Of a DNA stretch of 64,000 nucleotides, positions 7,772-45,077 are shown piece after piece. This DNA comes from Trypanosoma brucei. Lineage: Eukaryota. Location: assembly GCA_000002445.1 (NCBI GenBank), contig CM000208.1:3840001-3904000 (forward strand), in the 5' to 3' direction. The notes below the pieces were generated by a model. That model was not told where the DNA came from and ran no database searches. It was given only the letters and a program-made list of their open reading frames with translations. Both the position numbers and the translations under genes were made by a program. Position 1 is the first letter of the stretch. Each line of letters begins with the position of its first letter.

Positions 7772-9025
7772 ATGCGGTCATCTTCCGCCGCATCATCGAC
7801 TAGAGCCCTTACCCCTGGGAAGTTGAAGCAGCCAGGCTCCACGAGAGGGCTGAAGAGTACGCACTCCGGCAGTGAAGAAGCCGTCCTGAGCGATAAGTTG
7901 CTGCTGTTTTTACAGCAAAGTCGGGAACGGACATCCCATAATCATGCCGCGCGAATTTCCCTGCTGGAATCTCAGTACACACAAAGCCTCCACGGACTCT
8001 CAGGGGCCCGTGGTTCATCTACCCTCTTCACCGAAGCTTCACTGAATGCGCGAAAAGGTGGACGTCACGGCAGAGACCCTGCAGGAATTGTTGACAAGGA
8101 GATTGTTATTGAGGTTGATATGAGTGAAAGTGAGGATGAAGTATCGTCGCAACCGATAGAAACGAATCATAGGGCACAGCAGCGGGAACATGCAGCAACG
8201 CAGTTTTCGTCGGTTCGCCTGACGGCATCGTCCTGCAGGGTCACTGCCACCGCTGCTGCTACCGATCTCTCACCTCAGAGTCTGTCCGAATCGTATGGTG
8301 TATCTCCGGAGGTTCGTACACCCATTTCCCCTTTTATAGAAAAGATGCATTACCGCGAGGTTCTGTGCGCGCCTGAGCTGCCTCAGGGTCCTGAAAAGCG
8401 CAACAAGACTACAACCCACTACACGGCAACGGAATTGTCTCTTGGGAGGGCACAGGCGGGGGTGCGTGCCAATGTCGGGAGGGGTATGGTGTCCTCACTC
8501 CCCCCGTGTGCTGCGGCACGTAACGAAGTTTCTGTTTCACTAGAGCGAGCCATCAATGAGGCAAGGGACAAGCACAACTGGAGTGAGTCAACGACGGCAA
8601 ATGTTATGAGCCGTGGTACGACGACGGCCCCGCCCATGCTACCCCGTACCAATGCAGTGACATCTAAAGTGGATGACGAAGTGCAGCACTCCCCCCTCTT
8701 TCCGCACGAACCGGAGATAGAGGAGTTTCTCGCGTGGGAAGCGGCAAAACCCGCTGAGCTACTCAAATGCTTGCGTGCGGGCTTTAGCAACCACTGCCCC
8801 ATCGCAACCGCGTATGCCGCCGTGCGCCCCGAGGTCCATTGGCTCTCTCTGCTCTGCAACAGTGAATCGGATGTCAAGAGTGAAGCAAAGGGATCGCCAC
8901 TTCGACCGGACTCAGCTCCCTCGCGATTCATTGAGTGGATCGCATCTGACGTGGACTGCTATGAGGGACTGCTACTGCAACGGGGGGCTGTAGCGCCAAT
9001 TGTTGCCAGAAGTGCGAAGTCATAG
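7772..9025 (+). CDS. Hypothetical protein (Ser/Thr/Ala-rich, no recognisable domain)
   Basis: The track ORF starts at GTG 7742 and the first ATG is at 7772 (MRSSSAASS...). It is a long + strand ORF (417 aa) in the same orientation as its neighbours, preceded by a polypyrimidine tract. Confidence 0.55.
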   Translation: MRSSSAASSTRALTPGKLKQPGSTRGLKSTHSGSEEAVLSDKLLLFLQQSRERTSHNHAARISLLESQYTQSLHGLSGARGSSTLFTEASLNARKGGRHGRDPAGIVDKEIVIEVDMSESEDEVSSQPIETNHRAQQREHAATQFSSVRLTASSCRVTATAAATDLSPQSLSESYGVSPEVRTPISPFIEKMHYREVLCAPELPQGPEKRNKTTTHYTATELSLGRAQAGVRANVGRGMVSSLPPCAAARNEVSVSLERAINEARDKHNWSESTTANVMSRGTTTAPPMLPRTNAVTSKVDDEVQHSPLFPHEPEIEEFLAWEAAKPAELLKCLRAGFSNHCPIATAYAAVRPEVHWLSLLCNSESDVKSEAKGSPLRPDSAPSRFIEWIASDVDCYEGLLLQRGAVAPIVARSAKS

Positions 9026-9371
9026 CGGTGACGGCATCCCCGTGCCGCTTAACCCCGTTAAGAGAGGGAGAGTTGGCACACACGCACACAGCGAACACTG
9101 ATTTTGCTGTTGTCAATAGAAAGTTATGTGTACGCATCTGTACGCACATTGATTCTGCAAAGGCCTTCGCAGATTACAATTCTGCTGCCGGGCTTGCTGC
9201 TTCATCACTGTCGGCGCTTTCAACATATTTGAACATGAAATGCTGTGATATTCTCATCAAACTGATGGCAGTTTTTTTTTTTCACTCAATCTTTATTTCG
9301 TGATTTGAGAAATTCTGTGCTTAGGAAGGATAAAGGAAGGGAATATACATAAATAAAGTAATATATAATAT

Positions 9372-9591
9372 ATTACTTTCCTCAGGCATAAAATGTTTGG
9401 ACGACGCGTTTACGCCAGTGCGGCAGTTCCCCGCCGTATGTGGCCGGCACTTCACATTCAGAGCAGTAGCCAAGCACTGCGTATCCTTCCTTCACTCGCA
9501 CCACTTCACCCGACTATAACTCGGCATGTTGCACTTGTGTCCGCCCCGCTCACAAGCCTCTCCGCGGTCGGTTTGTGTGAATCCTCAACGG
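9372..9591 (+). repeat. Copy 1 of a 220-bp perfectly duplicated segment (second copy at 13869..14088)
   Basis: Direct comparison by eye: 'attactttcctcaggcataaaatgtttggacgacgcgtttacgccagtgcgg...gtgtgaatcctcaacgg' is identical in both places, then diverges abruptly (9592 'a' versus 14089 'c'). Confidence 0.85.
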
Positions 9592-9725
9592 AGTTATGCA
9601 AAGATACAACGCAGTCGCAGGGCTGTGTCGTCCTGTCGCTCATCTCAGCCTCGTGGTGCCAACCGCACAATTTTCTCCCTCCATTTGTGGCAGAGTGCAC
9701 AGGGGTAAAGAAAGTGCTTCACTGA
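9393..9725 (+). CDS. Small ORF (110 aa) with mitochondrial-presequence-like N-terminus; paralogue A of a duplicated ORF
   Basis: ATG at 9393, 21 nt into the duplicated segment. The N-terminus 'MFGRRVYASAAVPRRMWPAL' is Arg-rich and amphipathic like trypanosome mitochondrial targeting peptides. The first 66 aa are identical to the ORF at 13890. Coding status is unproven. Confidence 0.35.
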   Translation: MFGRRVYASAAVPRRMWPALHIQSSSQALRILPSLAPLHPTITRHVALVSAPLTSLSAVGLCESSTELCKDTTQSQGCVVLSLISASWCQPHNFLPPFVAECTGVKKVLH

Positions 9726-10421
9726 AAAGCTTCTTCTCATTATAAAAGAGGGGGGCTGAAGGTGAAGGGCCCCCCCCCCCAACAGGGAGGTTTGAAGGGA
9801 TGAGATGCTTGGATCGCCTACATGTCGTTCGTGTTGATCGGCTATTCTTCACAGCTGCATCATGTCCTCGCTTCACTTTCATTTCAACGGACGGTGGGGC
9901 TTTCCTCCCCGTGCATGCGCTCCCCTCACCACTCCGTCGCGGGTGTGCGCTCACAAAGCACACAAGTTTGTAATGTGTGCTTGTGTACATACGCACGTGC
10001 GTGTGCCCGCGCTCTTATCGCAGCAGTAGTAAATTTAAGTGGCCAACAAAAGTGATACTAAAACTACAAAAACAGTCGTTTGGGAGTAAAAATGTCTTGG
10101 TATGAGTGGGCCCGGACTGTGTGGCCCAACCAGAAAAACTTTTGGCATTTTCTCGCCCATGAGCCCACGCCCGAAGGGGTGAGGAAAATTCATTACATAC
10201 ATTTATGCATACACATCTTACCCCCTCCCATTGTGGATGTTACATTCCTCTTCTTTTCAACGGGCGGCCCAATCCCTTAACGAAGCCGCCTTCTCACCTC
10301 GTGAAGAGCATCATTTGAGGGCTAGCGTGTACGTATACCTTCTTTCCGTATTTGCTACCCGCGCTTATGGTTTTTGTAACGGTGAAAGAAAAGGCAACTA
10401 ATATAATTGCTTGCATATATT

Positions 10422-10424
<3 letters not shown>

Positions 10425-10461
<37 letters not shown>
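10425..10461. repeat. (TA)n microsatellite
   Basis: 'atatatat...' run of about 37 nt. Confidence 0.95.
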
Positions 10462-10464
<3 letters not shown>

Positions 10465-10572
10465 CGCACAGCATTAACTGCTGCTATTGCCTCATAAACT
10501 TTCGAGAAGTGCAACCTCAGCGTACAATTCCGTGCAGGTGTGTGAATTGGTGAGGGGAGAGTGCTGTTGGGT

Positions 10573-12402
10573 ATGTCAGACGACGAGCACAAACGACACC
10601 CGCACGCACAACGTTCCCGCCATTCAACAGCGTCGCCAGGCATGATCGGTCATGATGGAAACTTCATGGAGAGCTTCAAAGACATGCTGGGCGATATATA
10701 TGCCCCGCTGAAGACAGGTCTGAAGTTGGAGCACGTAATTTATAATGCATGTTATATGCTTCTCATGTTATATGGTTTCTTTGATGTTGCAGATGCGTCA
10801 AAGCAGTGGGCGTCAGAATTCTACATTGAGCCACCGCGTTGGAGCATACTAACCATAACCTCTCTGGGTTCCACCGGCTATAACGGGACTGGGGACGCGC
10901 AATGGACTTCCATCGACAGGGGGTTTGGTCTCCTCCTCTCTGCGCTGGCGTTATTCGTTATCGGGGCCCGTGGTGTCCGCAGTGTTTTCCATGGGGAAAA
11001 TGGCGTGAAGGCGCTCCAGCGGTACTACTTGTTCGCCGGATTCCTCTTCACAGCCTTCTTGCACGGGCCCATGTTCTGGCTGCCGATTACCATAATTGCA
11101 CTTAACTACGTCTTCATTATAATCTTGCTGAAGATCAAGATGCCTCACTGGGTGCACATGGCAGTTATGTGGACGGCAGTGGTGTCGCTGATGCTTAGTG
11201 TGGGATACTATGGAGGTCGGTTGATCATTGGTCCGAGGAGACTTGGCTTTTGGGGAGGCATGGCCAGCTGGGTTCCCACGTTTAACATGTCTATCCTTCG
11301 CATGATTTCGTTTAACACAGATCTGTATGAAGCGATACACGCGAGCGCTCCTGCGCGGGCAACAACTACGAGGAAACACGATAACGGTTGCTTGGATTGT
11401 GCACGACTACGTGACAAACACCCGGAAAAAGAAGTAACTGCCGTGCGGTGTTACAAGTTTCGTTCAGAATACCCCCGCAATGTCAATGAGTACAATCTGC
11501 TGAGCTACATGGCGTACATGCTCTACCCGCCGCTGTACATCGGTGGGCCCATGTCTTCCTTCAATGCGTTTGCTTCACACTGCCAATATTCTACTGTTGC
11601 CATGACGAGGTCGCAGTTGATCGTTTACGGAATATTCATTATTATTCTATACGTTACTCAGGTGAGCATGCTACACTTTGTGTACCTGAGTGCTCTGCGG
11701 CAAAGGGGCGATCTCGTCATGAAACTGAGCACAACGCAAGCTGCTTTCATGCTGTACTATTCCTTGGCCTTCCTTTGGCTGAAGTTCTCCTTGGTTTGGA
11801 AGACGGGTCGCTTGGCTGCTGTTGCGGACGGGGTTGATGTGCCAGAGGACATGCGGCGCGCCTACAGCAACACGTTAAGTGTGCGAGACTTCTGGCGTGA
11901 TTGGCATGCCTCATTTAATGTGTGGGTTGTGCGCTACATGTACATTCCCATGGGGGGAAATAGACGGAAGTATTTCAGCATCCTTCCCATATTCTTCTTC
12001 ATTGCGGTATGGCATGATTTGGAACTCCACCTTATTGAGTGGGCGGTATGGATTATTGCCTTCTTTTTAGTTGAGCTTTTTGTTGGGTATCTATGGGGCC
12101 TGCCGTTATTTGCGCCGGTACGACACTCAAAGTACGAGCGCCTGCTAAGAAGTCTTGCTGGAATGGTCAGTGTTTTTGGACTTACAATCACGAACATGAT
12201 CGGCTTCGCTACCGTGGCAGCACCTCACGGAGGTTCATTGACAGCGCAGATTATTCTGCATATCCTTGGGACTCTTAACTTAACTCTATTCTTCTTCTTT
12301 TTACTATTTTTCTTTTTGCTCTCTGCCACGGGTGTTTTGCTTCGTGATGAAGAAGCAAATCAAATAAAGCAGCTCAAGGAAAGGTACGGTATAGTTCGTT
12401 GA
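10573..12402 (+). CDS. Membrane-bound O-acyltransferase (MBOAT family, GUP1/HHAT-like)
   Basis: The track ORF starts at GTG 10561 and the first ATG is at 10573 (MSDDEHKRH...). It is multi-pass hydrophobic. The MBOAT signature 'FWRDWHASFNVWVVRYMYIPMGG' matches GUP1 '[23 protein letters not shown]', and the downstream conserved His is in 'AVWHDLE'. Confidence 0.8.
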   Translation: MSDDEHKRHPHAQRSRHSTASPGMIGHDGNFMESFKDMLGDIYAPLKTGLKLEHVIYNACYMLLMLYGFFDVADASKQWASEFYIEPPRWSILTITSLGSTGYNGTGDAQWTSIDRGFGLLLSALALFVIGARGVRSVFHGENGVKALQRYYLFAGFLFTAFLHGPMFWLPITIIALNYVFIIILLKIKMPHWVHMAVMWTAVVSLMLSVGYYGGRLIIGPRRLGFWGGMASWVPTFNMSILRMISFNTDLYEAIHASAPARATTTRKHDNGCLDCARLRDKHPEKEVTAVRCYKFRSEYPRNVNEYNLLSYMAYMLYPPLYIGGPMSSFNAFASHCQYSTVAMTRSQLIVYGIFIIILYVTQVSMLHFVYLSALRQRGDLVMKLSTTQAAFMLYYSLAFLWLKFSLVWKTGRLAAVADGVDVPEDMRRAYSNTLSVRDFWRDWHASFNVWVVRYMYIPMGGNRRKYFSILPIFFFIAVWHDLELHLIEWAVWIIAFFLVELFVGYLWGLPLFAPVRHSKYERLLRSLAGMVSVFGLTITNMIGFATVAAPHGGSLTAQIILHILGTLNLTLFFFFLLFFFLLSATGVLLRDEEANQIKQLKERYGIVR

Positions 12403-13868
12403 GCTGCTTTATTTGATTGGAAACTGAGAGCTGATTGCGCTTCAGTAGTTGCACATTCCTTGTGTGTTCGCGCAACACATGAACCGTAAGATGTCAGACG
12501 TCTTGTGTGAAGTTTTTATACTTCATTTCTGAAAATCGTATAGTCATTTATCCTCTATCTCATCATTATTCTTTCCCTTCCTCTTTTGTTGCCGTTACTT
12601 AAATGGCTTGTTTGATTGTGTGTTTGTTTTCTTCTCGCTTAACCGTTGAATTCTATATACTTTGTTAATATTTTTTAAAAAAAAAAAAGGAAAAGGAAAG
12701 AAAAAAGGAAAACGGAATAAATGCACGGTGTGGGGGCATAATGAATTCCACAGAATGAAAAAAAAGGGGGGAAAGTAACTTGTAGGCAAGAAGCGGATCA
12801 AAATATCCGTAAAGGCGGTGGAATGAAAACAAGTAAAATAGAGGGCGTACGAAACGCTTTAAAAAGATAAATAAATAAATAATGGCGGTGTAGTCGAATA
12901 TATTTAACGATTATGACAAAGAGGGAAAAAAGAAAAAGAAAAAGGTAAGAGAAGGGCAGTCGGATTGTAGGGGTGTTTGTATGCACTACCCGACTCCGCT
13001 TTTGCGGCATAGTGATGATGACAGATGCGGGCAAGTATCTAAGTAAAATTAGTTCAGTCATCAATTTGCTCCTCTACTACCGCTCTTCGTCTGATTCCTA
13101 TTTTCGCTATGTGTTGTCATTTTCTTTTTTTTCTTTGTTTGCTTGTCTTTCTATCAGTGTTTTTTGTTTCTTTTTCTTTTTTATTTTTGTTTTTTCTCTT
13201 GATTTATCTCTTTTTTTAATCTTCACATTTCATTACTCGAAGTTGATTGAATGGAATTAACACATGGAATTGCAGCAAAAAGCAGAACACGGAATTGGAT
13301 AAAAATGGATTAGGCGAAACGCTTCACAAATGCTATTTGCATTTTGGCTCATACCAGACCGGGTAACCACCGCTACCGTCATCAACACTGCTGCCGCTGC
13401 TGCTGCTGAATCCTGAGTGAAGGTGCCAAAAAAAAAAAAAAAGAGAAAAGAGAAGAGAAGAAAAGAAAAATCAAACAAAAGAAAAAAATAGCACGGCAAC
13501 ATTTTCTCACCGCGACGAAGTCACCCAACAGCGCTTAAGACAAACAGCCAGTGGAAGATGTATTAAGTGTAATCGTACCGCTCCATTATTTTACGGTGCT
13601 GTTTTATTCCTTTCATTCTTTTCTTCGCCCCTTTGCTAGGCAGTGAAACGGGAATATACATATATGTGTGTATGTGTGTGTGTTTTTACTGTTGGTGCTT
13701 AGGCTGCTTTCTTTTCTTTTTATTTCTTCTTTTTTTGTTTTGCTTCCTATCTTCATGTCACTACAACCACTCTCCAAAAAAATAAAAACAACAACAACAA
13801 CACAATCCCAAGAAATCGACAGAGAAGGGGCTCAACCACAGTTCCACTCGCGCGTTGCTTTTTTACTC

Positions 13869-14088
13869 ATTACTTTCCTCAGGCATAAAATGTTTGGACG
13901 ACGCGTTTACGCCAGTGCGGCAGTTCCCCGCCGTATGTGGCCGGCACTTCACATTCAGAGCAGTAGCCAAGCACTGCGTATCCTTCCTTCACTCGCACCA
14001 CTTCACCCGACTATAACTCGGCATGTTGCACTTGTGTCCGCCCCGCTCACAAGCCTCTCCGCGGTCGGTTTGTGTGAATCCTCAACGG
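13869..14088 (+). repeat. Copy 2 of the 220-bp duplicated segment
   Basis: Identical to 9372..9591 over 220 bp. Confidence 0.85.
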
Positions 14089-14273
14089 CGCTGGAACCTT
14101 TACAAGGCGATGGCAGGGGATTCCTCGTCTCACATGCAGGCGGTTGGTACAATTGCGCACGCGCGTTGCTCACAAATGTCAGTACGGCTCCTATGAGGAC
14201 TATAATTTGGAAACTACACAATAAAGCGCAAGCCCCGTGGTCGCTACCGCGCCTTCAAACTACCCGAGAATAA
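13890..14273 (+). CDS. Small ORF (127 aa), paralogue B, sharing an identical 66-aa N-terminus with the 9393 ORF
   Basis: ATG at 13890 in the same frame as track ORF 13668..14273. The upstream part of the track ORF is translation of a GT/TA microsatellite and a polypyrimidine tract, not coding. The C-terminal 61 aa are unrelated to paralogue A. Confidence 0.35.
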   Translation: MFGRRVYASAAVPRRMWPALHIQSSSQALRILPSLAPLHPTITRHVALVSAPLTSLSAVGLCESSTALEPLQGDGRGFLVSHAGGWYNCARALLTNVSTAPMRTIIWKLHNKAQAPWSLPRLQTTRE

Positions 14274-14337
14274 AGCGTCCGAAAAATAGGGCCGATGGGG
14301 GGGAGGGAGACGGAATAATCATGTAAGTGGAGAACAA

Positions 14338-14340
<3 letters not shown>

Positions 14341-14379
<39 letters not shown>
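14341..14379. repeat. (TA)n microsatellite
   Basis: Uninterrupted TA run of about 39 nt. Confidence 0.95.
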
Positions 14380-14382
<3 letters not shown>

Positions 14383-14951
14383 CCCGGTGAAAATAATGGA
14401 GGGGAGATGAAATAACTGGGACAGAGTGGCTGGGAGCATCAATAACTATCGTATGCTATTTTGTGTTCACAGAAGGAAACATAATTAATAATTTGATTTG
14501 TGTTTACATTTCATTCTCTGGTTGCGTAGGGACATGCGTGCACTCAATTTTAGTGTGCGCGCTTTCCCACGTTAAAAACCAAAGTTTAACACCAAAGTGA
14601 AACGCCGGCGCCAGGAAACCAAAGAGTGAAAAAGGGAAAGGAACGAATATGTTGGATGCGTGAAAGAAAAGAGTTGGAAAAGCTCTTAGTGTAAGTCGAA
14701 TATTTCCCGTGGTGAGTGTACGCGTTGGCCTGCTCTCCGTATGAAGAGAAGGGAATTAAACAAAATGTATCGCACAGGGTTTTATACCCACGCTAACTGT
14801 ATGAAGGGAAAATGTGCAGAGAGGAGAGAAGAGGAGGAAAAGAAAGGAAGTGATACACGACCTTCCACCAATTCTGTTGTCCGTCCCAAACGTCGTTTTC
14901 TTGACCCACTCTTTTCTTTTGTGACTTTGTCATCTTCACCCGTCCACTTTC

Positions 14952-14954
<3 letters not shown>

Positions 14955-14990
<36 letters not shown>
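14955..14990. repeat. (GT)n microsatellite
   Basis: 'gtgtgtgt...' run of about 36 nt. Confidence 0.95.
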
Positions 14991-14992
<2 letters not shown>

Positions 14993-15454
14993 CCTTTCAA
15001 CCTATGGCTTGGGGTTCATACCGGCAAGGCTTGTTGATGGTGACGAGACCGTTTGTAAGCATTCCTTGTCTCCGAACGGTTTTTTTTTGCATCTATTGTC
15101 CATACTGAAGTTGCAAGCGCAAGGCTGCACATGAAGAAGCTTGCACGGAAAGAAAAAAAAAGTAAAATGCTTCCCAACTTAGCTAACCGTTATCGTATTT
15201 ATCGCTCATTCCCCGCTGTAAGCTACGCAATTCGCAACATATCCTCCTCCTTTTGGGTACACCCACCGAAAGAAGGGGAAAAAAACACTTTGCATTCGAC
15301 GCAAGGGGCTGAAGAAAGTGAGTCACAGATACCTGAAAAGCAACCAGCAGAATATACAAAAATAAAGGGGAAGTGAGCCAGCGGTCTCAGTGTTGACGGT
15401 ACGAAGACCCTGCAGCAAACCCACCCCGTATGCCGGTTGGCGTACATGTTGGAT

Positions 15455-15520
15455 CATTTTACCATTATTGTTATTATTGTTATTATTTTTTCTTCTATTT
15501 TGTTCTTTCTCTTAAACTTC
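15455..15520 (+). promoter_or_regulatory. Polypyrimidine/T-rich tract upstream of the 15570 CDS
   Basis: 'ttaccattattgttattattgttattattttttcttctattttgttctttctcttaaacttc'. Confidence 0.5.
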
Positions 15521-25889: not shown

Positions 25890-26474
25890 GTGACTACCAT
25901 ACGTGAAGATGGGGAAGGTGTTGGTAAATACCTTCCGATAAGTGGGACCGTGTTTGTCATTGGCCTTTCCGTTCCAGATGTGAGGGAAATCGCGAGGAAA
26001 CTTGAAGAACGCAACGATTTGCGTGTTATTGTTCTCTTCGGGGAATTTTCATTACTGTATGATCTGTTTACCACGGCCCTCAACAACACCGCAGGCGCCG
26101 CACGTCTTGTGTTTGCCACCAGCTTGCCACATTGGGGTGATACTGAAACCTCATCGAAGACTGCTCAACTGTTCCATGATGTTGAAAAAGACTCACGATT
26201 GTGGACACCCCTATCACTTCTGGCATTCGCAACCGGTCGATTGATGCGGGTAATACTTCTTCATGTAGAAGAAATGAGTCCAGACACGTTGGTAAATTTC
26301 TTCTATGCCGATTCTTCCATCATCTCTGATGACATGCGCTACGGCGTATTCGACGACACAAAATGCGACACCGCGGAGAAACTTCCGAAGAATGATTGTG
26401 CCTCAAACTATGGCGCAACGCAGGTATCCGTGTGGTCTATGGCCCGTGCCCTCAACGCCTCCATTCCTCCACTT
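25890..26474 (+). pseudogene. Truncated fragment of a receptor-type adenylate cyclase extracellular domain (no ATG; ends in a microsatellite)
   Basis: The track ORF 25890..26750 begins at GTG with no in-frame ATG near the 5' end. Its translation 'VFATSLPHWGDTETSS...TPLSLLAFATGRLMRV...MRYGVFDDTKC...NYGATQVSVWSMARALNASIPPL' parallels residues about 640–820 of the downstream cyclase ('VLFATNLPHWADEITAS...TPLSLLGFATAYFMRV...MRYGPFADDGC...NYGATQISVWSMARALNASIPPL'). Homology stops at 26474, where a (TA)n repeat follows. Confidence 0.7.
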
Positions 26475-26497
26475 GCAGATTGCTTTTCTTCCACTTG

Positions 26498-26521
26498 TAT
26501 ATATATATATATATGTATATA
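26498..26521. repeat. (TA)n microsatellite at the truncation point of the cyclase fragment
   Basis: 'tatatatatatatatatgtatatat'. Confidence 0.9.
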
Positions 26522-27125
26522 TCTTCATCCATTAAATTCTCTGCTACCGTTTAAGTTTGGGTTGAGGCGAAAATGCCTTGGAGGCGAGGTGTGGAAATCA
26601 TCCAGGCAAAGGGTTATACGGGGTTACCTTCCAGCGTGTCTGCCATCAGTGATCTGGGTAGTGAAGCGCGGGTTGCTGGTGTGTGTCCCCCGTTTCGTTA
26701 CTGAATACGTCATGTCAGTCTTTCGGGGTTACGCAGCGTGTAGGAGGTAGGGGAGGAAGGCAACCCATAATGCACATGCGAAGAAGGTGAAGTGGTGTGG
26801 GAACATGTGTGCCGGCAAATGTCGTCAAGGGGCAAAATATTACAGGCATCGCCCACGGTCGATGAGACGCAAACTGGACCTTCAGTGTATGGGGAAAGTG
26901 ATTACAAAGTGGCTCATGGGCATCGATAGCTTGCTCGGAAGCACGGGTCACGGATGGTGGCGTGTGTTCAGTTTGTCTCGAAACCGTGCGGTGCGGTGAG
27001 TGCGGACTTTACTGCACATGCCGTAAGTACTGATACTCTCCTCAGTTCGCGTTCCTCTCCCCTACCAAATCCCTTCCCCCTTTTGTCTCCACACGAACAT
27101 AGTTTACTCGGTTAAACAGAAGACC

Positions 27126-30100
27126 ATGTGCGTTGGCACCCGTGCTGCTGGTTTTGGCGGCAGTGCCGCAGACACATCCATCGTAGTCGGTCCAGCACGG
27201 AGGAGATCCTACTGCGGCCGCGCCCTTGTTGGAGCGGCGCCGTTGCCAGTCTTACTGCTTCTGTTGCTGTCGGTAATGTGTGTGAAAGCCGATATAGAGA
27301 TCGAGGTTTTCTCTCTATTGCACCATCAGAAGATAGAGAAAAGGTTCGTTGAAGCGGTTAACGCTGGCTTCAACGCTTCCATGACCTCGCGCCGGTGGAA
27401 GACGGCACCCAGTGTGCACATCAAAGTCATGCATCCATTTACGCCCAGCGCGTCACCTGTTAGTGGCTTCCAACAGGCTGTGGAACGCAACAGGGGCAAA
27501 CTCTTCGTTGTAGTTGGACCCCTGGGCGATTTCGGCACCGTCTCGTCGCTCATTACACTACTGGCAGAACAGGATGTGGTCGCCTTCGCGCCCCTAACTG
27601 GATCAAGTGGGGGTCGTGGGTGGAACCCTAATCTATACTTCACGCGTGCTTCTCCATCCGCAGAGCTACTGGCGCTCATCCGATACGCGTTGGGCCGGCT
27701 ACGTACAATTCGATTGGGTTTCATGTACCTTCACAATGTCTTCTTCGGGGTGGAGGAATATGACGTCGCCCAGCGCATATTGCGTCGCATGGGTTATGGA
27801 TTTTGCGGTGTTTTCACTTTAAGTAGCTCACTGACCGGGGTTGCGAGCACCAGACACTTCGATTCCGCTTGGAATACGTTTGTGGAAAGTCGTCCACAGG
27901 CTGTGATTGTGTTCGCTCCCCCCGTGGGGGATACGGCAAGGTTCATACGAAACCTGGTTGCTGACAGTCGCACGAGAAGTGCGTACGTGCTTGTTCCGTC
28001 GATGCTCCAGTTTGCCATTGAGAACATGTGGCGCGAGGCGCTGGCCTTTGCCGATAGCCCATTTGTGGATGGGCAAGTTGTGGTAACGGGAACCAACCCA
28101 CTTGCAAGGGACACACAGTATCACGCTATCCGACGGTTTCAGAGAGACGTGAGGTCGTATCTAAAATCGAACCCGGGTGTAACGGTCTTCAATGCCTCGA
28201 GCAATTTCGATCACGATGACATAGATGGGCAGTTGTTGGTTTATGGATGGATCACTGGTGAGGTGTTAGCTCAGGCGTTGAGCGTGCCCGAGCGTCTGAC
28301 TGACAGAAAAACATTTATGCAATCGTTGTATGACCAGCGGCGATACGTAATTGATGACCTTGTGATTGGAGACTATGGTGGTGAGTGCGCTGGTTGGGCA
28401 GCCGGTCAGGGAGCAATGTGCTGGTGCAACCAGGGGGGGAACACGGTGCACGTAAGGGTGATCAGTAGAGGCTACCGGCTGCTGGATGCACCCGATGGAA
28501 TTATGATGTTTGACTCTTCTCACTGCTACCCTAGCGAGGTCGAAATGCAGGCTCCGTTCAATGGTGTGTCTGTTCTGATACCGGATAGACCAACCGCATT
28601 GCATGCTGCTGTAGAAATGGAAGAGGGCGCCTCTCTACTCGAAGTGAGGGAGCACAACCAAGACAGCAGGCTGTTTTTCGACACCATCGTCTCGCCTTTC
28701 AGCGGAGCCGCCGAGGAGTTGCAGCGGGAGTGGTCCACGAAGATCACCACGGCTGTGCTGGGTGTTGTGGATGAAGCAATGCTAAAAACACCCGGTGTCG
28801 CGTTCATTGACCCGGTGCCGCTCGCGCCGCGACTGAACAAAATGGAAAGGAATGTTATTCATCTCTCGCCAACCCTGGAACAGCAATTTTATGTGTGCAC
28901 GTCGTATCTTTCGAGGAACGACAAAAAACGTCTGCATATCGTTATCCGCAGTATCGATGCGGCCGCAATCGAGGATGTTCTGAAGAAAACCCTTGCGACG
29001 TTCAGTGTGGAACCGCAGTCAGTGGTAGTGCTGGACGGCAACGCCACGGTAGAGGGCCACCTGCCTGACAGTGGGGATGTTTACGTCATCGGCCTCACGG
29101 CAGCTGATCCCGTAGTGATTGCGGCCCATCTCAATAGTCATGATAGTGCTCGTGTGTTCGTTCCATTTTTCGATGTAGTACTGCTTCATGAAGAATTTTT
29201 TAACGCGTTCGAAGGCGTCTCGAGTGCTGATCGCGTCCTCTTCGCCACTAACCTACCACATTGGGCGGACGAGATCACAGCGTCAGAGGTTGTACAGAAA
29301 TTCTACACAGCGGAAAGAAATGCATCACGGCGAACGCCGCTCTCGCTTCTAGGATTTGCCACAGCGTATTTCATGCGGGTTATTATTTCCCCGATGAAGG
29401 CTATGAACGCAACTGCGCTTGTTGACTCCATTTTTGCTCAATCTGTAGTCAACGTCGGTGAGATGCGCTACGGCCCCTTCGCCGATGACGGTTGTTTTCT
29501 GAAAGGAGTGCCGCGTTTGACAGGTTGTGCCGTTAACTATGGCGCAACGCAGATATCCGTGTGGTCTATGGCCCGTGCCCTCAACGCCTCCATTCCTCCA
29601 CTTACAAATCCCATGACACCGTCAATGAGGTACTTGGACCCGGACGCCGGTAAACTTTCACGGGGACAACTTGCTGGCGTAATCGCCAGTTCCATTCTCG
29701 TCGCACTGCTTCTTGTGGCTCTGACTACGGTGCTGCTGCATGTCTCGCGACACAACACCCGTGATAACAACAGCGCGCCAAAGGAGCCCACAGAGCCTGT
29801 GACAATTGTTTTCACAGATATTGAAAGCAGCACGGCACAGTGGGCTGCCCACCCCGATGTCATGGCTGATGCTGTCGCCGCACACCACAAGTTGATCCGC
29901 GCGCTGATCTCCCAGTACGAGTGTTACGAGGTGAAGACCGTTGGGGACTCGTTCATGATCGCGAGCCGAAGTGCGTTTATGGCGGTGCAACTTGTGCGGG
30001 ATCTGCAGAGGGCGTTCCTTCGCCACGACTGGGGCGCGTCCGTGTTTGACGAGTATTATCGCAGTCTTGAGCAGGACCGTGCGTCAGAAAGTGAGGGATA

Positions 30101-30836
30101 CGTGCCGCCAACCGCACGCCTGGACCCCGACGTGTACCGAAAGTTGTGGAATGGCCTCCGAGTGCGAGTTGGTGTGCACACCGGATTGTGTGACATTCGC
30201 CACGATGAGGTGACAAAGGGTTACGACTACTATGGTCATACGTCGAACATGGCTGCCCGCACAGAGAGCGCTGCGAATGGTGGACAGATATTGCTGACAC
30301 GTGCAACATACCTTTCGCTAAGCACAGCAGAGCGTGAGCAACTTGACGTCACTGCGCTGGGCGCCGTCCCACTGCGTGGCGTTCCCGATCCGGTCGAAAT
30401 GTACCAAGTTGATGCTGTGGTCGGTCGGTCCTTCGCTGCACTGCGCCTCGACGGGGAAGTCGATCTGGTCGCTGAAAGTGAATTAGCTGTTTGCCACGCC
30501 AGTGACACCAGTTCAGCTACTACTGCCCTGGATGAATCATCGCAGATCATCACCAGCTGCTTTGAGACGCTGCTTGGCGCATTCACTCCTTCCAAGCGGC
30601 GAGACCTGCTGTTGCCTATCTGCGAGCGTTGGCGTGTGACGTTGCCACAGAAAACCAAGTCCGTGTGGGATGATAACGACTGTCAGGAGGTTATGCGGCG
30701 TATAGCAACAAAAGTGGGCCGTGTGGTGGACTTCCATGTTGTGGATGACGGCGGTTGCTCGACGGAAACAGTAAGCAGTGCATCGGTGATTATTATATCT
30801 AATCATGTGGAGGATTTCACCGCGCATCAAACTTAG
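27126..30836 (+). CDS. Receptor-type adenylate cyclase (GRESAG4/ESAG4-like): signal peptide, large extracellular VFT-like region, single TM, class III cyclase catalytic domain
   Basis: ATG start; 1236 aa. The N-terminal signal 'AAPLPVLLLLLLSVMCVKA', a TM helix 'AGVIASSILVALLLVALTTVLL', and a catalytic domain 'VTIVFTDIESSTAQWA...YEVKTVGDSFMIAS...VRVGVHTGLCD...YYGHTSNMAARTESAANGGQILLT' carrying class III cyclase signatures. This architecture is characteristic of trypanosomatid receptor adenylate cyclases. Confidence 0.9.
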   Translation: MCVGTRAAGFGGSAADTSIVVGPARRRSYCGRALVGAAPLPVLLLLLLSVMCVKADIEIEVFSLLHHQKIEKRFVEAVNAGFNASMTSRRWKTAPSVHIKVMHPFTPSASPVSGFQQAVERNRGKLFVVVGPLGDFGTVSSLITLLAEQDVVAFAPLTGSSGGRGWNPNLYFTRASPSAELLALIRYALGRLRTIRLGFMYLHNVFFGVEEYDVAQRILRRMGYGFCGVFTLSSSLTGVASTRHFDSAWNTFVESRPQAVIVFAPPVGDTARFIRNLVADSRTRSAYVLVPSMLQFAIENMWREALAFADSPFVDGQVVVTGTNPLARDTQYHAIRRFQRDVRSYLKSNPGVTVFNASSNFDHDDIDGQLLVYGWITGEVLAQALSVPERLTDRKTFMQSLYDQRRYVIDDLVIGDYGGECAGWAAGQGAMCWCNQGGNTVHVRVISRGYRLLDAPDGIMMFDSSHCYPSEVEMQAPFNGVSVLIPDRPTALHAAVEMEEGASLLEVREHNQDSRLFFDTIVSPFSGAAEELQREWSTKITTAVLGVVDEAMLKTPGVAFIDPVPLAPRLNKMERNVIHLSPTLEQQFYVCTSYLSRNDKKRLHIVIRSIDAAAIEDVLKKTLATFSVEPQSVVVLDGNATVEGHLPDSGDVYVIGLTAADPVVIAAHLNSHDSARVFVPFFDVVLLHEEFFNAFEGVSSADRVLFATNLPHWADEITASEVVQKFYTAERNASRRTPLSLLGFATAYFMRVIISPMKAMNATALVDSIFAQSVVNVGEMRYGPFADDGCFLKGVPRLTGCAVNYGATQISVWSMARALNASIPPLTNPMTPSMRYLDPDAGKLSRGQLAGVIASSILVALLLVALTTVLLHVSRHNTRDNNSAPKEPTEPVTIVFTDIESSTAQWAAHPDVMADAVAAHHKLIRALISQYECYEVKTVGDSFMIASRSAFMAVQLVRDLQRAFLRHDWGASVFDEYYRSLEQDRASESEGYVPPTARLDPDVYRKLWNGLRVRVGVHTGLCDIRHDEVTKGYDYYGHTSNMAARTESAANGGQILLTRATYLSLSTAEREQLDVTALGAVPLRGVPDPVEMYQVDAVVGRSFAALRLDGEVDLVAESELAVCHASDTSSATTALDESSQIITSCFETLLGAFTPSKRRDLLLPICERWRVTLPQKTKSVWDDNDCQEVMRRIATKVGRVVDFHVVDDGGCSTETVSSASVIIISNHVEDFTAHQT

Positions 30837-42573: not shown

Positions 42574-43329
42574 ATGCAGACCTTACTGAGACCCCGCCCC
42601 GGAGAGCCCACTCTCTTTGGCCCACCCACCAATCAGTGCACTCAGCTATGGGGTGTCTGGGAAATGTGGTGCGTGTTGCCTGATGGCCACGAAGCAGCAA
42701 CTGCTACACCAAATGTGCGTGGCAGCGGCGCGAAGAAGGGTGGTATGTCCAAGACGAAAGTGAAGAAGGCGACATGGCTTGACCAGGTGCGAAGCATCGG
42801 TCTATTCGACAGTGCTGAAGGGTTCTGGGGGATTATTACATGTACACTCAATCCTTCGCAGCTACCGCCCGGATTTAACTACTACCTCTTCCGGCGGAAT
42901 ATCGCCCCTATGTGGGAGCACGAAGCCAACCGCAGGGGTGGGCGCTGGGTAATGCGTTTCCGCGTCTCTCAACACGATGACAGCCCCGCTACCGCTCTCG
43001 ACGGCGCTGTGGCTGCCGCAGCTGAGGGTCAACTCCCAGTGGATCGAGCATGGGAGGCGCTTTGTGTTGCAATGATTGGTGAGCAGCTCCCAGGCGATGA
43101 AACAGAGATTTGTGGAGCAGTGGTGCGGCGGGCAGAGCGTCGGCGAGACTGGAAGTTAAGCCTCTGGACCCGAACCGCCGCGGACCGCTGCACGCAGGAG
43201 CGCATCGGCTTTTTTGTGAAGGACCTGCTTCATTTGGAAGATGGTTCACTACAGTATTTCTCGCACCGCGAACTAATGCAAGCGAGTGAGAAGGGGAACT
43301 GGGATGTCCCACCCTTGTATCAATTGTGA
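42574..43329 (+). CDS. Translation initiation factor eIF4E family (cap-binding protein homologue)
   Basis: ATG start; 251 aa. 'FDSAEGFWGII...LPPGFNYYLFRRNIAPMWEHEANRRGGRWVMRF' matches the eIF4E core ('FdtVEdFWalynhi...l..g.dYsLFKdGIePmWEDeknkrGGrW'), and 'LSLWTRTAADR' matches 'IcIWT'. The cap-stacking Trp positions are present. Confidence 0.8.
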   Translation: MQTLLRPRPGEPTLFGPPTNQCTQLWGVWEMWCVLPDGHEAATATPNVRGSGAKKGGMSKTKVKKATWLDQVRSIGLFDSAEGFWGIITCTLNPSQLPPGFNYYLFRRNIAPMWEHEANRRGGRWVMRFRVSQHDDSPATALDGAVAAAAEGQLPVDRAWEALCVAMIGEQLPGDETEICGAVVRRAERRRDWKLSLWTRTAADRCTQERIGFFVKDLLHLEDGSLQYFSHRELMQASEKGNWDVPPLYQL

Positions 43330-45077
43330 TGGAATTAACGCGAAGGCCCATGCCTACTGTCTTTTACCGCGCGGCCTTTCAATCGAGAAGGTTTCTAATC
43401 TCTTTTCAGGAAGCGTCCTGGGAGAGAAATGAAGTAATATATTCATAGATGCAGGCACCAGTCGACGACAGACCAACACATGGTCTTCATAGAATTTATA
43501 GAAAAATAGATTACATTTTTAGGTACCCACTTAGAATTGGTACGGCTGGTGAGAGAGCAATCAAGGGTGTTTCGTGCAATAACATCGACCAACAATTTGT
43601 AGAAACGTTTGCGTTCGTTTAGTTTCCCATTTGTCCAGTTGACTAGGAATCATTAACCGGAAGTCGATGTTCTAGTTAGTAAAAATCTGTTGTGTTTTCC
43701 CCAATTATCCGTCTGGTTTGTTTCATCGCTTGTGTCGTGGCTTAGGCCTGTGTTGCCCATACATTCCTACCTCCTTTTTGCCCTTGTGTGCCCCGTACGT
43801 ACAAATGTGGTGGTTGCAAACTACGCGTGTGCGTCCGTTTGTACACCTGCTTGAAATGTTAGGGGGGAAAAAATAGGTTGGGTACCTAGACATTTTCACA
43901 AGATAGCTCAAGAATATCGAGAAGGCTCCGAGTGTAAGACACAGCATTATGTTCAGTCGCCGCGTGGCTAGCTGTTGCCCCATCCCCACAGCCATGTATG
44001 GCGCACTGCACATCAACACCAAGCGTCAGGCGTCCCGCCTCGTGTCGCCACTTGTACCGGTTGCGCCATCACTCAAACATGTTGCTGGGGCAAGTGTAAC
44101 GGTGACGGGTGTGGTACTTGGAGAGCTCTCTACCGTGAGTCTCGCCTCAAACGTGTCGTTGTTGTCTCTTGTGGGCCCTTTATCACAGCTGTTTATGAAC
44201 GGCTTTGCTTCCAACCCAGTCTTCATGCGAGTCATTTCCGATACAATGCATACTTATAGCGTTTTACTTCACTCGGTTAGGGGTGGTGCGGCACCCTCGC
44301 CACCAGGACGGACGAGCGAAATGTAGCGCGGGTGTTAGTATGTGCACACAACTTTCGGGGGCGGCTATTCCCCTTCGGCTTACATGGTGGAGAAGGCGCG
44401 GAGGAAGTTAAGAGAAGGTGAACGAAGATAAGGGCTGTTCCCATAACTTCTGTGGATGCTATAGCCTTGTTCCTTCCCTTTCATATGCAGTTTGGCACCT
44501 GTCGACGAGGTTTGTAGAAAAGGAGGTAGGTGCACGTGGAGCCTATGACGCGCACACATAGGAAGCTGGGGACGACAAGAGGAAGAATAGTGTAACGAGG
44601 AGCAGTGTGGCAACGAAGGCAACAACGGTCAATTGGGGACAGGAGTTTCGTGATAGTTGTTTAAGGGAACGAATAAAACACAGTTCAGACATATATGAAT
44701 AGTTGAGGTTTGTCTTATCTTTTGCCGTTAGCAAATGTCGTGGCATTTCCTCTGTTCTTCACTTCTAACTGCACATAACTGAGTTGGGAGATCACCAACT
44801 CAACTGTATCGGCTGAAAGGTGAGCGGAAGGATAAATTCTTTTGTTGAAGGTTTACGCTGCAAATCATACTGTGCTATGGTTTGAGAACTCTGTGAAACC
44901 CTTAGTTTTGCACTCTTCACGCCCCCGCTTCCCATCACCTCCCGCATTCATGCTCACCAGAAAGACAAAACCTCCCTCCTTGCAGGGCTCGCGAGCAAAC
45001 GGCACGAAGGGAAATAAGAGGTTGAAGTGCCTCCGCCCCTTTTGTGGGCAGCTACACTCTCCTACAACCTAGCAATC

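Follow-up and report, generated by a model that had tools for sequence, protein, structure and literature searches.

The stretch of DNA analysed here (the window, 64,000 bp) was assigned by exact protein look-ups to chromosome 10 of Trypanosoma brucei brucei TREU927. In it two small genes, Tb927.10.15900 and Tb927.10.15920, flank the GUP1/MBOAT gene Tb927.10.15910, and the 5' ends of the two small genes are identical over 220 bp. The features of this locus, including the 5' untranslated regions (5'UTRs), the spliced leader (SL) addition sites and the coding sequences (CDSs), are as follows.

9310..9392, plus strand: 5'UTR of Tb927.10.15900, 83 nt; SL addition site at 9310, AG at 9308-9309, first 62 nt unique
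9372..9591, plus strand: identity tract, copy 1; last 21 nt of the 5'UTR and codons 1-66 of Tb927.10.15900
9393..9725, plus strand: CDS of Tb927.10.15900, 110 aa, upstream-type small protein; C-terminal motif WCQPHNFLPPF
10573..12402, plus strand: GUP1/MBOAT gene Tb927.10.15910, between the repeat copies; Pfam PF03062, E 6.6e-29
12403..13812, no strand: gene-less 1.4-kb stretch; position of the phosphatidic acid phosphatase type 2 (PAP2) gene in other trypanosomatids
13813..13889, plus strand: 5'UTR of Tb927.10.15920, 77 nt; SL addition site at 13813, AG at 13811-13812, first 56 nt unique
13869..14088, plus strand: identity tract, copy 2; last 21 nt of the 5'UTR and codons 1-66 of Tb927.10.15920
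13890..14273, plus strand: CDS of Tb927.10.15920, 127 aa, downstream-type small protein; motifs ALEPLQ and PMRTIIWKL

The two copies of the tract are direct repeats with a spacing of 4497 bp and match at 220 of 220 positions, a length of perfect identity that cannot have arisen by chance. The tract extends from -21 to +199 relative to each ATG, and in an ungapped comparison matching falls to the random level from the next base at both ends. Consequently, the two open reading frames (ORFs) have their first 66 residues in common and then continue into unrelated tails, to totals of 110 and 127 aa. A (TA)n run follows each ORF (~10425-10462 and ~14340-14381). A preliminary description of this DNA had reported a perfect 220-bp duplicate with abrupt ends, a common 66-aa N-terminus joined to unrelated C-termini, and the bracketing of an MBOAT gene by copies each with a (TA)n run downstream; the identity count, the translated ORFs, the Pfam match between the copies and the located (TA)n runs bear this out. 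A G3C11 homopolymer-type run is present at 9770-9781, in the 3' region just past the stop codon of Tb927.10.15900.

Both small ORFs correspond to annotated genes. Tb927.10.15900 is an exact match of EAN78948/Q387S4, and its CDS as given by Jensen et al. (2014; PMC4210626), 3920871-3921203, fits the window ORF; coordinates of that work convert to window positions with a constant offset of 3,911,478. Tb927.10.15920 is EAN78950, modelled in TREU927 as 172 aa from an upstream ATG and in T. b. gambiense as 127 aa (exact match CBH16844). Since the sole splice site falls within the 172-aa model, its start was reset to 3925368, i.e., window position 13890 (PMC4210626), supporting the shorter 127-aa gene model.

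Mapped 5' ends place the SL addition site of Tb927.10.15900 at 3920788 (44 SL reads, 75%, the same as in TriTrypDB) and that of Tb927.10.15920 at 3925291 (385 SL reads, 70%; PMC4210626, Additional file 6). Each site is preceded by AG in the window sequence and lies in unique DNA upstream of the repeat. Another AG, 9 nt upstream of the ATG and inside the repeat, was ruled out as the splice acceptor, the mapped sites being at -83 and -77. Normalised ribosome-profiling counts in procyclic forms were 565-775 for Tb927.10.15900 and 1190-1476 for Tb927.10.15920, with bloodstream-form counts three- to five-fold lower and both genes flagged as procyclic-up (PMC4210626). Multi-mapping reads made up 63% for Tb927.10.15900 and 36% for Tb927.10.15920 (unique reads 37% and 64%; PMC4210626), as would be expected from the head common to both genes. 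The preliminary description had named a lack of SL sites or ribosome footprints on either ORF as the result that would refute it; each ORF has both. Thus, both small ORFs are expressed genes, trans-spliced at their own sites and translated.

Perfect identity and multi-mapping reads are also what would be seen if the 220-bp unit had come from some dispersed repeat or mobile element or had been produced by misassembly. The multi-mapping fractions, however, are broadly those that two copies would give, and exactly two copies of the unit were found within the window, where it is not the end of a dispersed repeat, a possibility named in the preliminary description. In protein searches no T. brucei proteins other than these two had this head, and the unit is read in the frame of a conserved coding sequence that is under purifying selection. 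No hallmarks of transposons or mobile elements were seen in the sequence of the locus. TREU927, T. b. gambiense DAL972 and T. equiperdum, three independent assemblies of the T. brucei group, all encode the same two small proteins, so the duplicate is not an assembly artefact, and the same structure is found in five other species. With copies counted in the 64-kb window, an origin as a repeat fragment or artefact is very unlikely.

Orthologues and concerted evolution of the gene heads

Homology searches revealed two relatives of the small proteins each in T. congolense, T. vivax and T. theileri and one in T. grayi; with a profile search the set grew to include T. cruzi, another protein of T. 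grayi, Leishmania species, Porcisia, Phytomonas and Bodo saltans. The C-termini divide the Trypanosoma proteins of the alignment into two types, the upstream type with the motif W/x-Q-P-H-x-F-[LI]-x-P and the downstream type with the motifs ALEPL and P-[LM]-R-T-I-[IVL]-W. Local alignments of residues 60 to the end confirmed this division in T. brucei, T. vivax, T. theileri, T. grayi and T. cruzi, upstream types scoring best with upstream types and downstream types with downstream types.

The gene order is also kept: kinase, hypothetical protein, upstream type, MBOAT (one to three copies), PAP2, downstream type, PDZ protein, cation-efflux (CDF) protein and TBP-like protein. Both gene types are syntenic in T. 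vivax, T. theileri, T. grayi and T. cruzi, the pair is present among the proteins of T. congolense, and L. donovani has an equivalent pair around MBOAT and PAP2. Across Trypanosoma the C-termini are orthologous and the order of the genes is shared, which indicates that the paralogy is old: it goes back to before these lineages diverged, the homogenisation alone being recent.

The preliminary description had taken the abrupt loss of similarity as evidence of a recent segmental duplication and not of an old paralogy. An explanation of this kind would have a T. brucei-specific rearrangement graft a 5' piece onto unrelated DNA and create one or two chimeric, probably non-functional ORFs. The perfect identity with its abrupt ends, the lack of a Pfam domain in either ORF and a nearby gene loss, which shows that the locus has been rearranged, are consistent with such an event. 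However, both types, with their distinct C-terminal motifs, occupy corresponding positions in T. congolense, T. vivax, T. theileri, T. grayi and T. cruzi, the pair occurs in L. donovani, both T. brucei ORFs are trans-spliced and carry ribosome footprints, and in their unique parts the proportion of non-synonymous differences (pN) is below that of synonymous differences (pS). A recent duplication is therefore very unlikely, and this claim of the preliminary description has to be abandoned.

The heads of the genes behave differently from the tails. Within a species, the first 105 nt of the two genes differ at 0 positions in T. brucei, T. theileri and T. grayi, 1 in L. donovani, and 4 in T. vivax and T. 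cruzi, while differences between these six species, for which DNA was compared, number 18-38. Codon changes in the head between Trypanosoma species are mostly silent (12-18 synonymous vs. 4-9 non-synonymous), and over codons 1-38 pS is 0.45-0.80 and pN 0.05-0.14 (Nei-Gojobori). These values indicate that the head peptide is under strong purifying selection, with silent sites drifting freely. No silent difference separates the T. brucei, T. theileri or T. grayi pairs, an outcome with a probability of ~1e-7 over 38 codons even at the lowest pS. Since silent sites drift between species, their identity within species is not a product of protein selection alone. In addition, the identity extends into 5'UTR flanks within species, and these flanks are unrelated between species. 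The limits of the tract, relative to the ATG, are as follows.

T. brucei: -21..+199, 100% identity
T. vivax: +1..+104, 3 mismatches
T. theileri: ~-104..+209, coding part 209/209
T. grayi: -29..+114, 1 mismatch
T. cruzi: -18..+121, 4 mismatches
L. donovani: ~-31..+111, 1 coding mismatch
T. congolense: first 45 aa, identical (protein only; ~+135)

Tract limits specific to each lineage, combined with identity within species, are the signature of recurrent, independent and partial gene conversion.

The T. brucei tract reaches ~21 codons past that of T. congolense (codons 46-66, VALVSAPLTSLSAVGLCESST). Compared with T. congolense, this segment has 10 of 21 identities with the upstream type (score 41) and 4 of 21 with the downstream type (score 16). 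This match to the upstream type points to the upstream gene as the donor of codons 46-66 and to Tb927.10.15920 as the chimera; the own sequence of the latter resumes exactly at the conserved ALEPLQ motif. The suggestion in the preliminary description that one or both ORFs are chimeric thus applies to the downstream one, the recipient of upstream-type codons, and not to its presumed donor. Its view of the knife-edge transition as a recombination junction holds, and its idea of a mobile 5' module is apt in that the end of the 5'UTR and the N-terminus behave as a module copied between two different gene bodies.

The small-protein family and the proposed mechanism

The module shared by the family comprises the first 38 residues, MFxRRVFxSxxIPRxMWxxLHIxSxxQAxRxLPSLxPL, past which conservation collapses. 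In 62 family members these 38 positions contain a single acidic residue in all and a mean of 5.2 basic residues per protein. Tb927.10.15900 and a third family member, Tb927.10.16080, are positive with both TargetP and MitoFates in Supplementary Data 2 of Peikert 2017 (PMC5436138), where the marks for both IDs stand only in the prediction- and annotation-based reference columns. The basic, nearly acid-free composition and the marks for Tb927.10.15900 are in line with the presequence-like N-terminus that had been proposed from the sequence.

Neither the small ORFs nor any of their relatives has a match in Pfam, and sequence searches of the PDB with a family profile and two members gave nothing better than E 0.48; lacking such a match, the proteins are not subunits of the solved trypanosome mitochondrial complexes. 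The AlphaFold2 model built from the 62-sequence alignment shows no fold and has a mean predicted local distance difference test score (pLDDT) of 61 and a predicted template modelling score (pTM) of 0.26, with only residues 11-30 confident (~87-90). A full-text literature search on the gene IDs yielded only a review dealing with GUP1, and no paper discussing the small-protein family was found. Probably, this is a kinetoplastid-specific family of small mitochondrial proteins that act through short motifs. Two long proteins, P0056 (1751 aa) and P0084 (1731 aa), match the N-module profile repeatedly, in 14 and 6 stretches, respectively; these are probably repetitive or low-complexity chance matches.

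The third member is located elsewhere in the window.

43949..44326, plus strand: Tb927.10.16080, 125 aa; N-module hidden Markov model E 8e-19, C-terminal motif FMRVISDTMHTYSV

An eIF4E homologue (42574-43329) immediately precedes it, and the T. congolense orthologue (P0077) is likewise adjacent to eIF4E. Translation of the gene is documented, as are 2028 SL reads (PMC4210626). It differs from the GUP1-flanking pair at 51 of 105 nt, having the peptide in common with them and not the DNA.

The latter difference bears on an alternative in which the nucleotide sequence itself is functional, either as a shared RNA element or as a DNA recombination site for changing the number of MBOAT and PAP2 copies, and conversion is the means that selection maintains. 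The same 5' region is homogenised in all six lineages with DNA, and the tract always takes in the start codon region. Furthermore, the number of MBOAT genes varies by species, with the upstream-type gene among the MBOAT copies, and both mRNAs are co-regulated, being abundant in procyclic forms. On the other hand, the silent sites (pS 0.45-0.80) and the 5'UTR differ freely between species, with no specific element conserved, and the third paralogue retains the peptide without the DNA. The 220 nt fold no better than shuffled sequences (z +1.1), which gives no signal of structure, and an Rfam scan of 8500-15500 returned sub-threshold chance matches on the (TA)n runs only and none in the tract. 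Selection on the nucleotide sequence is therefore an improbable explanation.

With a probability of roughly 0.87, Tb927.10.15900 and Tb927.10.15920 are ancient paralogues flanking GUP1 that encode small, largely unstructured, predicted mitochondrial proteins and whose 5' ends have been homogenised by partial gene conversion. The C-terminal halves evolve separately and are orthologous across Trypanosoma, and the 5' ends (a few to ~100 nt of the 5'UTR and the first 35-70 codons) would be repeatedly overwritten by non-reciprocal intrachromosomal recombination. The 220-bp tract of T. brucei could then be the footprint of the latest conversion, one that reached further 3' than in T. congolense; its knife-edges would be the tract ends, beyond which there is no homology between the genes. 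Purifying selection on the 38-aa module may keep the copies similar enough for recombination to re-initiate, and the module itself may act as a mitochondrial targeting and processing signal. The perfect repeat with its sharp ends would accordingly date the last conversion and not the duplication.

Several points weigh against this interpretation. Conversion is deduced from a phylogenetic pattern, and the copy count of the 220-bp unit covers the 64-kb window. The T. congolense pair was compared at the protein level only, and alignment scores leave the C-terminal orthology of the L. donovani proteins to the Trypanosoma types ambiguous. The unique parts of the genes, with pN below pS, give ω values of roughly 0.2-0.4 that come from saturated dS and protein-guided alignments. 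As for the mitochondrial location, the IDs of the small genes are absent from those importome result tables of PMC5436138 that were examined, and no localisation or proteomic entries for them were present in the searched supplements of TrypTag, PMC5739487 and Dejung. Finally, presequences are not usually the best-conserved segment of a protein, so the term "targeting signal" may not describe the module fully.

There is also an outside chance that the 38-aa head is the functional core of small translated proteins with interchangeable, fast-evolving tails, forming a hitherto undescribed family found throughout the kinetoplastids, and that the identity of the GUP1-flanking heads in every lineage is itself selected. 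In that case, both proteins might have to present an identical module to one partner, or the direct repeats might let the MBOAT/PAP2 lipid-remodelling cluster change its copy number.

GUP1, PAP2 and other genes of the window

The gene between the repeat copies, Tb927.10.15910, is an exact match of EAN78949, annotated as "glycerol uptake protein," and clusters with BAF43804, annotated as "sn-2 acyltransferase"; it is listed as the GUP1 homologue (PMC8591177). A perfect hairpin with a 20-bp stem at 12358-12418 straddles its stop codon, the 5' arm being formed by the last codons and the 3' arm by the first bases of the 3'UTR. The RNA free energy of this hairpin is -32.7 kcal/mol (z -7.7 vs. shuffles).

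T. brucei and T. vivax have one MBOAT/GUP1-like copy, the T. theileri locus three, and T. cruzi two and a fragment; T. grayi has three such genes, the contig ending inside the third. In multi-copy species (loci L002, L003 and L008) the upstream-type small gene is interspersed among the MBOAT copies. Internal blocks of these MBOAT copies are 87-95% identical to one another, suggestive of conversion here too.

In T. vivax, T. theileri, T. cruzi, T. grayi and L. donovani the last MBOAT gene is separated from the downstream paralogue by a PAP2 gene (8716-9543 in locus L001, 7891-8745 in L002, 16055-16900 in L008, 1189-2034 in L009 and 5339-6541 in L006). Neither the gap at this position in T. brucei nor the rest of the window contains a significant PAP2 relic, as judged by tblastn with the T. 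vivax and T. theileri proteins as queries. The preliminary description had likened the 1.4-kb gap to two intergenic regions placed back to back and read it, together with the duplicates, as a sign of local rearrangement or deletion; the loss of the PAP2 gene in T. brucei accounts for this appearance. In T. b. gambiense, CBH16843 is located by accession order between GUP1 (CBH16842) and CBH16844, where TREU927 has no gene, and is possibly the low-complexity ORF at 12973-13260 or 13257-13502.

The 632-aa "MBOAT with N-module" of L. donovani (TPP41749.1, P0031) was considered as a third graft of the module and rejected, since it is very probably an artefact of a spliced gene model. Its range of 4343 bp (RHLD01000033.1; 10001-14343 of locus L004) is far longer than 632 aa need and has no direct translation into this protein, in which the head of the small ORF is joined to an MBOAT body via a predicted intron.

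Another in-frame repeat of the window, 85 bp long and 93% identical, is located at 26396-26480 and 29525-29609 (…NYGATQ[V/I]SVWSMARALNASIPPL…). Two ORFs contain it, one of 1236 aa (27126-30836) and one that is truncated (25890-26750) and continues into a (TA)n tract. The truncated ORF has the appearance of an incomplete paralogue or a pseudogene preceding the large gene, which is possibly the GRESAG4-type adenylate cyclase Tb927.10.16000.

Comparison with known systems

The sequences reveal the loss of PAP2 beside GUP1 in T. brucei and expose the L. donovani spliced-model artefact. Three "hypothetical" small ORFs of T. brucei chromosome 10 become one conserved, translated and probably mitochondrial family without a Pfam or PDB match, and this uncharacterised family is a more open question than the conversion itself. 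Its 38-aa module resembles trypanosomatid mitochondrial presequences in the M-F-x-R-R start, in being basic, hydroxylated and nearly acid-free, and in the procyclic-high expression of the genes. Unlike a mere cleavable presequence, it is far more conserved, from Bodo to Trypanosoma, than the rest of the protein.

Tandem arrays of T. brucei are known to undergo partial and biased conversion: 21 of 47 hold chimaeric copies, with breakpoints that often span the start codon or UTR (Jackson, 2007; PMC1855330). The GUP1-flanking locus, on which the main text of that work is silent (PMC1855330), shares with these arrays intrachromosomal, non-reciprocal homogenisation of part of a gene and the presence of chimaeric copies. 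It differs in that the partners are not adjacent but 4.5 kb apart with an unrelated gene between them, have unrelated 3' halves and are homologous in the head only. A further difference is that all the trypanosomatid lineages examined, from Leishmania to T. brucei, show this homogenisation of the head alone.

Gene conversion among the PGK A, B and C genes of T. brucei was reportedly described by Le Blancq and colleagues in 1988. There, as here, neighbouring paralogues with different termini and destinations have their shared parts kept similar by conversion. The PGK genes, however, share most of their length and encode a known enzyme fold, while the present genes share ~40-70 codons and encode tiny uncharacterised proteins.

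Amplification and deletion mediated by direct repeats are said to have been reported for Leishmania by Ubeda and colleagues in 2014. The repeats described here likewise are short direct repeats around a gene (GUP1) and thus potential substrates for deletion or circular amplification. The likeness is one of repeat layout; unlike the intergenic SIDER-type repeats of Leishmania, these are coding gene heads under purifying selection.

Overall, the locus offers a clean multi-species case of concerted evolution limited to the gene head, between otherwise unrelated genes, and a test case for the rules of length and homology that govern recombination in trypanosomatids. It belongs to the known partial gene conversion of T. 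brucei and stands out by head-only sharing, the intervening gene and the persistence of the process.

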